Shown: positions 5,503-7,575 of the stretch, in pieces | Layout of the letters: every line of letters starts with the position of its first letter | Position numbering within the stretch: position 1 is the first letter of the stretch | The notes under the pieces: generated by a model | Told to the model about the DNA's origin: nothing | Databases searched by the model: none | What the model saw: only the letters and a program-made list of their open reading frames with translations | Translations under genes and position numbers: made by a program | Assembly: GCA_035405645.1 (NCBI GenBank) | Contig: DAONJL010000010.1 | Coordinates: forward strand, 2,836-66,835 | DNA from: a bacterium | GTDB taxonomy: Bacteria; JAGOBX01; DAONJL01 | Length of the DNA stretch: 64,000 nt | Reading direction: 5' to 3'

Positions 5503-7575
5503 TTATGCTACGCCTCTTATTTTATATATTATCGTTTTTGCTATATTTTCACTTATTTCATTATATGAGTGATATTGCATTGTATATATTGCTCTGCCCT
5601 GTGTTAAACTTCTTAATGTTGTTGCATAGCCAAACATTTCTGATAATGGAACTAATGCTTCTATATGATTTTTTACACCACTTTTTATTAAATTCTGTAT
5701 GGTCCCACGGCGACTATTTATATCACTTATTACTTCGCCTATATATTCTTCTGGAACTATTATATCTACTCTCATTATTGGTTCAAGTAAATATGGACTT
5801 GCTTTATTACAAGCTTCTTGAAAAGCACTTACTGCTGCCATTCTATATGCTATTTCATTTGAATCTTCTTGAAATGAACCGCCAATTATTCGAACTTTTA
5901 TATTTATTACTGGATAACCAACAAGCACCCCACTTTCAAGTGAACTTCTTATACTCTCTTCTACACAATTAATATATCTGCGTGGTATTACATCTTCTGA
6001 TGTTTTATTTTCAAATATATAATATTTATCACACGGTTCTACTTCAAGTATTATATGTCCATATATATTCTTATTTCCTAATTGTTTCATTATTTTTGCT
6101 TCAGCGCTTGCTCGTTCTTTTATTGATTCTTTATATGCTACCTGTGGTTTTCCTACATTTGGCGTTACATTGAATTCCCTTTTTAATCTATCTATTATTA
6201 TATCTAAATGTAATTCGCCCATACCCGATATTACCATTTGGCCTGTTGTTTCATCTACTTTCATTTTAAATGTCGGATCTTCTTCTGTTAATTTATTTAA
6301 TGATATATTTAATTTATCAAAATCAATCTTTGAGCGGGGTTCGATTGCTATTGATACTACTGGTTGTGCAAATTGTAAATTCTCTAATATTATTTTTCGC
6401 TTTTCTGAACATAATGTTTCGCCTGTTATAGTTTTATTTAATCCTACTATTGCGCCTATATTGCCTGCTGTTAATTCCTCTATCTGATTCTTTTTATTTG
6501 AATGCATTTCTAATATATTATTTACACGCTCGCGAATACTTTTATTCGAATTATATATTACCTGTCCTTTTTCTATTTTCCCTGAATATACTCGCACATA
6601 CACTAATCTACCTGAATATGGGTCATTTGCTACTTTAAATGCTAATGCTACTAATGGCTCTTTTTCATCTGCTTTACTTGTTATTATTTTATTTGTATCA
6701 TCTGCTGCATAGCCCTTTACTTCGCCAATATCTATTGGTGATGGTAAATATTCAACTATTCCATCTAATAATTTTTGCACACCTTTATTTTTTAATGCGC
6801 TACCACAAAATACTGGTACACCTTTATTTCCTAATGTTATTCTTCGTATTGCTTCTTTTATTTCTTCTTCTTTTATTTCTTCACTATGAACATATTTCTC
6901 CATTATTTTTTCATCTAATTCTGAAACTGTTTCAATTAATTTGCTATGATATTTACTTGCAAGTTCTTTTAATTCTTCTGGTATTTCATGCTCATTATAA
7001 TTTATTCCATAATTTTCTTCTTCCCATATATATGCCTTCATTTTTATTAAATCAACTACTCCACAAAATGTATCTTCAATACCAATTGGTAATTGCATTA
7101 CTATTGGAATTGCTCCTAATTTTTCCTTTATTTCTTTTATTACATTAAAATAATTTGCTCCTAATCTATCAAGTTTATTTACAAATGCTAATCTTGGAAC
7201 TTTATATTTATTTGCCTGATGCCAGACTGTTTCACTTTGAGGTTCTACTCCACCTACGCCACAAAAAACTGCAATCGCACCATCAAGCACTCGCAAACTT
7301 CTTTCTACTTCTGCTGTAAAATCTACATGACCGGGAGTATCAATTATATTTATTCTTTTTTCTAACCAAAAACATGTTGTTGCTGCTGATGTTATTGTTA
7401 TTCCGCGTTCTTGTTCCTGTATCATCCAATCCATTGTCGCTGTGCCTTCATCCACTTCTCCTATTTTATAGTTCTTACCTGTATAATATAGTATTCTTTC
7501 GGTTAATGTTGTTTTACCTGCATCAATATGCGCCATTATGCCTATGTTTCTTATATCACTAATTAAAAAATTCAT
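5503..7575 (-). CDS. fusA: Elongation factor G (str-operon copy, divergent domain IV)
   Basis: [45 protein letters not shown]. Confidence 0.97.

Follow-up and report, generated by a model that had tools for sequence, protein, structure and literature searches.

Can an elongation factor G (EF-G) that no longer carries the conserved tip of its domain IV remain the translocase of the cell, and if it cannot, which protein would do this work instead? The question is raised by fusA, the EF-G gene of the str operon in an uncultured low-GC sludge bacterium whose genome (G000; 2.97 Mb, 141 contigs) is 90.7% complete. The gene lies in the window analysed here, by which we mean the whole stretch of 64,000 nucleotides taken from contig DAONJL010000010.1 (positions 2,836 to 66,835). 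A preliminary description made from the letters of the window had claimed that the encoded protein (P0001) lost both conserved motifs of the domain IV tip. On balance we lean towards the view that this str-operon copy has been given over to a task other than translocation, probably to recycling dependent on the ribosome recycling factor (RRF), and that the translocase would be either P0002, a second EF-G of the same genome, or a canonical copy that was not assembled.

The domain IV tip and the GTPase centre of the str-operon EF-G

The relevant parts of the gene are the following (window coordinates):
5503..7575, minus strand: fusA, encoding P0001, the str-operon EF-G, 690 aa, EFG I type (open reading frame, translation)
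6739..7557, minus strand: G domain with canonical motifs (Pfam, translation)
7507-7533, minus strand: G1, canonical
7387-7416, minus strand: G2/switch I, canonical, including RGITI
7318-7341, minus strand: switch II, canonical, catalytic His kept
7168-7179, minus strand: NKLD (G4), canonical
5797..6147, minus strand: domain IV, selectively diverged (Pfam EFG_IV, domain-wise identity)
6055..6087, minus strand: loop 1, residues 497-507; E. coli counterpart KQSGGRGQYGH
5971..6000, minus strand: ED (EDVIP) in place of GG before (V)IP (canonical GG(V)IP), the third tip-proximal change
5854..5883, minus strand: loop 2, residues 565-574; E. coli counterpart GSYHDVDSSE

When the loops of P0001 were aligned with those of E. 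coli EF-G (PDB 8y5k), loops 1 and 2, located inside 5850-6090, proved to be altered as claimed. In loop 1 Asn stands in place of the second Gly of the universal GG pair, and R, G and Q have become K, N and I, respectively, with Q507 and the flanking Y-G-H being kept. In loop 2 the equivalent of E. coli H583, correctly reported as gone, is Gln, one residue (Val) is deleted and S is changed to N. The statement that the G-domain motifs are intact was also borne out, for G1, G2, switch II and NKLD alike.

Conservation of the altered positions was determined in 358 homologues gathered in three database searches (E. coli numbering). The loop 1 glycines and the loop 2 His were invariant in 356 of them, the exceptions being the two closest relatives of P0001. 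Positions G512, Q513, V585 and S588 were 98-100% conserved, with G510 and H583 falling in the same range, and the GG before (V)IP was 96-100% conserved. The conserved tip loops by which EFG I proteins are recognized (SGGRGQYG, YHxVDSS) are absent from P0001, and its match to the Pfam EFG_IV domain reached only 98.5-102.6 bits, as compared to ~160-182 bits for canonical EF-Gs in the same searches. The divergence is selective for domain IV. The identity of P0001 to canonical EF-G amounts to 66% for the G domain, 61% for domain III, 45-48% for domain IV and 56% for domain V, whereas canonical pairs are 61-63% identical in domain IV and 66% in the G domain, the latter value being equal to that between P0001 and canonical EF-G.

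In all other respects the protein scores as an EF-G of the ordinary kind. Its match to the EF-G equivalog TIGR00484 is 976.3 bits (cut-off 659.4), all five Pfam domains (GTP_EFTU, D2, EFG_III, EFG_IV and EFG_C) are above cut-off, and its score is higher with E. coli EF-G (808 bits) than with human EF-G2mt (500 bits). The AlphaFold2 model has a mean predicted local distance difference test (pLDDT) value of 87, and predicts a folded domain IV (block pLDDT 80-94) with loop 1 as the tip of a beta-hairpin.

Loss of universally conserved residues together with a one-codon deletion in loop 2 could in principle mark a decaying gene that is turning into a pseudogene, or an error of assembly. We regard this as very improbable: the 690-codon frame is intact, its five domains are recognized, conservation of the G domain matches that of canonical EF-Gs, the model folds domain IV, and changes of the same kind are kept in orthologues that diverged at the class level (see below). 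Moreover, 11 contigs from at least four independent assemblies (ENA and JGI) encode exactly the same protein, so that the changes of the tip can be ascribed neither to chance nor to artefact.

A separate observation concerns the residue following GKTT (window 7504-7512, residues 22-24, the TTL of GKTTLTE), which is Leu in the P0001 lineage and Thr in EFG I. At this 'position 25', EFG I was described as having Thr and EFG II as having Leu (Margus et al. 2011, PMC3150367). Two other tip-degenerate paralogues, G016_str and G025_a, have Leu or Phe right after GKTT.

Age of the changes and constraint on the gene

Among the species genomes searched, three (G001-G003) are related to G000 at the class level, the others sharing with it the domain only. 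A search of genome contigs for loci related to P0001 yielded only generic EF-Gs of 52-57% identity from many phyla. The str-operon EF-Gs of G001 (KQINGKNQFGH, NSRYVENESSE) and G003 (KQINGKNQFGY, DSRFVENESSE) have altered loops as well. The nearest metagenomic relatives of P0001 are P0003 (70% identical; loop 1 KQVGNKGLFGH, loop 2 GSFHPVDSSE) and P0004 (68%; KQVANKGMFGH, GSFHPVDSDE). Because both retain the His of loop 2, the loss of this residue and the deletion are specific to the species studied here.

Phylogenetic trees were built with and without the domain IV columns. In both, EFG I and EFG II were separated with a support of 100 in the Shimodaira-Hasegawa-like approximate likelihood ratio test (SH-aLRT), P0001 being on the EFG I side, and P0001, the str-operon orthologues of the class and P0003/P0004 formed one clade (support 95-100). 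Since the degeneracy of loop 1 is shared within this clade, it must have arisen in the common ancestor of the class, and its presence in the str-operon orthologues of the class relatives shows that it is old and maintained rather than a sign of decay. P0001 grouped with other tip-degenerate paralogues at a support of 80 only, in a tree that held no named spd references. It is probably a case of independent degeneration within EFG I, although a distant link to the other tip-degenerate paralogues also fits the tree. Placement in a subfamily tree, which had been suggested in the preliminary description, thus revealed a tip-degenerate clade, but P0001 itself is EFG I by score, by tree and by operon context.

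A sister organism detected in the Logan run ERR14964779 encodes P0003, in the order rpoB-rpoC-rpsL-rpsG-fusA-tuf, and an EFG II protein (P0242), and allowed the constraint on individual genes to be compared. Identities between G000 and this sister are 84% for rpoB, 80% for rpoC, 85% for rpsL, 80% for rpsG, 93% for tuf (N-terminal 125 residues only), 78% for EFG II and 70% for fusA. Within its operon, the str-operon EF-G is therefore the gene under the least constraint. The constraint on EFG II in this lineage equals that on rpoC, a reversal of the usual picture, in which EFG II evolves fast (Margus et al. 2011, PMC3150367).

The second EF-G of the genome

The proposed second EF-G was indeed found. 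Exactly two genes with an EFG_IV domain are present in G000, that of P0001 and, on another contig, the following:
G000:C6:108367-110454, minus strand: gene of P0002, EFG II type, 696 aa

The two proteins are 37% identical. P0002 has canonical tips (KQSGGRGQYGH, FGGAIP and GTYHEVDSSD; EFG_IV 144 bits) and a non-canonical GTPase centre (SHQNAGKTT; EIEKKFTITS for ERGITI; DTPGYPDF, in which the catalytic His is Tyr). It belongs to the EFG II clade (support 99-100), where the G001 and G002 genes for EFG II are its sisters (99), its best NCBIfam match is NF009381 (876 bits), and it is conserved in relatives at 68-78% identity. Its score with T. thermophilus EF-G is 625 bits versus 459 bits with T. 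thermophilus EF-G-2, and its domain III is 53% identical to that of canonical EF-G versus 33-36% for its orthologues in family f2. The genome contains one RRF gene, and LepA was the only other EF-G-like GTPase detected in it.

The two jobs of EF-G thus seem to be split in an unusual way, the str-operon copy keeping the GTPase engine and P0002 keeping the tip.

The gene of P0002 is directly followed by a DksA/TraR-type zinc-finger gene (L002:1075-1416, on G000:C6) and then by hisA, and the arrangement is the same in the sister organism (L143:2292-2627). In G002 the corresponding downstream neighbour is a different gene, of ~454 aa, which we take to be that of a glycine-cleavage P-protein subunit. 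It is conceivable that EFG II is linked to stringent-response-type regulation. Of the words sampled from the 3.6-kb EFG II locus, 56-87% are present in three metatranscriptome runs, a weak hint that the locus is transcribed, as RNA libraries can carry DNA.

Search for a third EF-G

In the comparison of Margus et al. (2011, PMC3150367), EFG II proteins were always accompanied by another EF-G, mostly by EFG I, which was regarded as indispensable. In the 90.7% complete assembly of G000 the sole companion found for P0002 is the tip-degenerate P0001. Two of the class relatives, G001 and G002, each have a third, stand-alone EF-G downstream of rplI, with a canonical G domain and canonical tips ([ST]GGRGQYAH, G[ST][FY]HEVDSSE) and without the KDG switch I insert. 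This insert, the mark of spdEFG1, was found in none of the EF-G paralogues of G000-G003.

We consider it possible but rather doubtful that the organism has three EF-Gs as G001 and G002 do, in which case the canonical stand-alone translocase would be missing from the 141-contig assembly and the str-operon copy would still be specialised. The example of the two relatives and the incompleteness of the assembly speak for this, but tblastn with the G001 stand-alone copy matched only P0001 and P0002 in G000 and revealed no fragments of a third copy. At the syntenic site rpsF-ssb-rplI, located inside an 85-kb contig, rplI is followed by dnaB and not by an EF-G gene. Database hits to the G001 copy included none with the composition or gene context of this lineage, in a test whose power is low because the expected identity (~60-65%) equals the background. 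Two of the hit proteins, P0128 and P0130, were rejected as candidates for the third EF-G of this lineage, their contigs being of unrelated organisms.

The relative conservation of the genes also argues against a missing copy. In family f2, which has the canonical third copy, that copy is the best conserved EF-G (79%, the same as rpsG) and EFG II is at 71.5%, whereas here EFG II (78%) comes close to rpsG (80%), as would be expected if EFG II took over an essential role. Finally, the two-gene state exists in 98%-complete genomes of an unrelated family (see below).

Occurrence in other genomes

Two hundred diverse genomes, each at least 95% complete, were surveyed for their best EFG_IV scores, and the following statements apply to the matches listed. 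The best EFG_IV domain of every genome had an E-value of 8e-37 or lower, as compared to 2.8e-29 for P0001, so that in none of the 200 was the domain IV of the best copy as degenerate as that of P0001. In G000 this level is reached only by P0002. Tip-degenerate paralogues beside a canonical-looking EF-G were seen in G009, G016 (in the str operon), G025, G082 and G135; such paralogues are not rare.

Exactly the two-gene combination of G000 was found in the unrelated family f13, in two genera represented by G014 and G157 (both 98% complete, ~52% GC). Each has exactly two EF-Gs, one with a canonical G domain and a degenerate tip (RSLGDSVQFAS, ARWSEDSST), the other of the EFG II type with DTPGY[SA]DF and canonical tips. 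The two-gene combination therefore occurs in near-complete genomes. The loci are:
G014:C3:4074-6155 and G014:C14 (L045, L046): the f13 loci of G014
G157:C15 and G157:C2 (L152, L155): the f13 loci of G157

The str operon of f13 is broken up, rpsG not adjoining fusA, tuf or rpsL.

Comparison with known divisions of labour between EF-Gs

The two glycines of loop 1 let domain IV enter the decoding centre, and mutations of the tip have a strong effect on elongation and hardly any on the disassembly, or splitting, of ribosomes (PMC8203779). In EF-G2mt, which acts in recycling only, Asp stands in place of the second loop 1 Gly and precedes Lys and Arg, and in the likewise recycling-only EF-G2 of B. 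burgdorferi the first Gly is replaced by Ala (PMC8203779). P0001 resembles these spdEFG2/mtEFG2 proteins in having intact GTPase motifs and a replaced loop 1 Gly (Asn in P0001, Ala-Asn in P0004) followed by a basic residue, and RRF-dependent splitting as its function would be a further similarity. It is the parallel of its G-N-K (A-N-K in P0004) with the recycling-only factors that makes specialisation away from translocation, probably for recycling, the most likely reading. There are clear differences as well. In genomes without EFG I, spdEFG2 co-occurs with spdEFG1, which has the KDG insert in switch I (Margus et al. 2011, PMC3150367), whereas P0001 has no spdEFG1 partner, has its gene in the str operon, belongs to the TIGR00484 equivalog and is far closer to E. 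coli EF-G. Of the spirochaete-type split envisaged in the preliminary description, the part that stands is that changes in loop 1 mark recycling-only EF-Gs (PMC8203779); the partner does not fit, being of the EFG II type and having no KDG insert.

A second precedent is P. aeruginosa, where poly(Phe) synthesis is 75-fold poorer with the str-operon EF-G1A than with EF-G1B, and where EF-G1A apparently works together with RRF (Palmer et al. 2013, PMC3832671). The two proteins are 84% identical, and the differences reported are an insert in domain IV and C-terminal divergence, with no changes in the tip loops (PMC3832671). By analogy, this pair offers a precedent for a str-operon copy that is a poor translocase: both proteins are EFG I, the str-operon one is RRF-linked and the other translocates, and a canonical stand-alone copy of this sort is present in G001 and G002. 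In contrast to EF-G1A, however, P0001 has rewritten loops 1 and 2, and its sole partner found in G000 is an EFG II protein of 37% identity.

P0002, for its part, shares with T. thermophilus EF-G-2, B. thetaiotaomicron EF-G2 and M. smegmatis EF-G2 the relaxed RGITI (KKFTI), a first P-loop residue other than Ala, the switch II Tyr and the kept domain IV loops, all of which are features described for EFG II (Margus et al. 2011, PMC3150367; bioRxiv 10.64898/2026.05.25.727771). Unlike those proteins, it is unusually close to canonical EF-G and is conserved like rpoC in its lineage. The known EFG II proteins accompany a canonical EF-G, whereas P0002 may be the only tip-competent EF-G of its cell. 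In the literature we found no paper describing the combination of a tip-less GTPase EF-G with a tip-bearing, His-less EFG II in the absence of a canonical copy.

Which protein is the translocase?

Taken together, the sequences are most readily explained if fusA encodes a maintained, GTPase-competent EFG I protein with a remodelled decoding-centre tip (loops 1 and 2 and the adjacent GG). P0001 would no longer be the efficient translocase of the cell and would be kept for the RRF-dependent splitting of post-termination ribosomes. Translocation would be carried out by a tip-intact paralogue, for which the sole candidate in this assembly is P0002 with its canonical loops and its switch II Tyr in place of His; in the class relatives the third, fully canonical stand-alone EF-G would be available. 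That P0001 lost the translocase function, that it retained recycling and which paralogue translocates are all inferred from sequence comparisons.

Several observations weigh against this explanation. The first group concerns fusA itself, which keeps its prime position in the str operon, and whose codon usage is nearer to that of the ribosomal protein genes (codon adaptation index 0.699, 92nd percentile) than that of the P0002 gene (0.633, 65th percentile), an index that is a weak guide because tuf itself reaches only the 83rd percentile. Retention of Q507 and Y-G-H, and of the loop 2 His in the sister proteins, implies that some translocase activity may remain in P0001. The second group concerns P0002. 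The candidate translocase has Tyr for the catalytic His. In mycobacterial EF-G1 the replacement of this His by Tyr abolishes ribosome-dependent GTPase activity, and mycobacterial EF-G2, in which the Tyr is natural, supports neither productive translocation nor recycling (bioRxiv 10.64898/2026.05.25.727771). The EFG II proteins characterised to date act as auxiliary factors, translocate weakly or do not translocate at all. On the other hand, B. thetaiotaomicron EF-G2 is reported to sustain slow translocation, the title of that paper calling it an EF-G paralogue lacking GTPase activity, and T. thermophilus EF-G-2 is credited with GTPase and translocation activity. In family f13, outside domain IV, evolution of the degenerate copy is slower than that of EFG II, which is the opposite of what is seen in the lineage of G000. 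Lastly, the assembly, 90.7% complete and in 141 contigs, may lack a canonical third copy such as G001 and G002 have.

Much of this would fit an arrangement in which fusA still encodes the main translocase, slower or differently tuned than usual but tolerated in a slow-growing anaerobe, with P0002 being an auxiliary or stress-related EFG II as in Bacteroides, Thermus and mycobacteria. The str-operon position, the codon usage resembling that of ribosomal protein genes, the fully canonical GTPase centre, the residues retained in and around the loops, the poor record of characterised EFG II proteins as translocases and the rule that EFG II is always found with another EF-G, mostly EFG I (Margus et al. 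2011, PMC3150367), all point in this direction. Nevertheless, we judge this arrangement to be unlikely. The residues changed in P0001 do not vary among 356 other EF-Gs, relaxation is confined to domain IV, the rate of evolution of fusA exceeds that of rpoC, rpsG and EFG II, and, among the matches listed, none of the 200 surveyed genomes relies on so degenerate a domain IV as its best copy. In addition, the str-operon copy is still more degenerate in the relatives that have a canonical extra EF-G, from which it follows that the str-operon copy of this lineage lost the constraint on its tip long ago.

Within the explanation that assigns recycling to P0001, a more far-reaching version can be put forward only tentatively, and we would rather doubt it than rely on it. 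It would hold that there is no canonical EF-G in G000 and, independently, none in f13, that EFG II with its Tyr is the housekeeping translocase, elongation proceeding with little or no hydrolysis of GTP by EF-G, and that the str-operon EF-G serves recycling only. Elongation of this kind is reported for the starvation-time EF-G2 of Bacteroides.

Neighbourhood of fusA and other features of the window

The window has a low G+C content (22-32%), and its minus strand carries nearly all genes up to ~60.3 kb. The minus-strand order rpoC, rpsL, rpsG, fusA, tuf, rpsJ is the same in relatives. The neighbours of fusA are:
8733..13025, minus strand: rpoC, upstream of rpsL
8248-8631, minus strand: rpsL, upstream str-operon gene (Pfam on identical contigs)
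7758-8234, minus strand: rpsG, upstream str-operon gene (Pfam on identical contigs)
7629..7682, minus strand: very stable hairpin of 17+6 bp in the rpsG-fusA spacer (minimum free energy -45.2 kcal/mol)
4245..5456, minus strand: tuf, encoding EF-Tu (403 aa), directly downstream of fusA
3906-4229, minus strand: rpsJ, after tuf

The spacer between rpsG and fusA (window 7576-7757, minus strand) is unusually long (182 nt). Its hairpin has a z-score of -9.08, none of 200 shuffled sequences folding as well, and no match to it was found in Rfam. In the sister organism a 346-nt spacer (L142:7655-8000) contains a hairpin of ~29 bp at the same position but of different sequence, whereas the family f2 relatives have a short spacer. 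The hairpin may be a processing or attenuation site, setting the level of fusA apart from that of rpsL-rpsG.

A second open reading frame of 690 aa, located at window 36328-38400 (minus strand), encodes a methyl-accepting chemotaxis protein with a CZB zinc-binding domain and stands beside a chemosensory operon; as a candidate EF-G it was rejected on account of this assignment. GC skew and AT skew both change sign where the orientation of the genes flips (divergent genes at 60279 and 60399; window ~60279-60399). As the strong skew of the window tracks the coding strand, it cannot on its own count as evidence of an origin of replication.

Implications

A division of labour between EF-Gs is known from mitochondria, spirochaetes and Pseudomonas, where the translocase is a canonical-looking GTPase. 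Here, a canonical GTPase centre is found in a tip-less protein and the tip in a protein without the catalytic His. Because both genes pass TIGR00484, annotation pipelines would name both products 'elongation factor G', and the specialisation is invisible in databases. If P0002 is the translocase and there is no third copy, free-living bacteria would run their housekeeping translocation on an EFG II-type factor. The picture of an indispensable EFG I and a merely auxiliary EFG II would thereby be overturned, and this would point to energy-saving elongation in energy-limited anaerobes.

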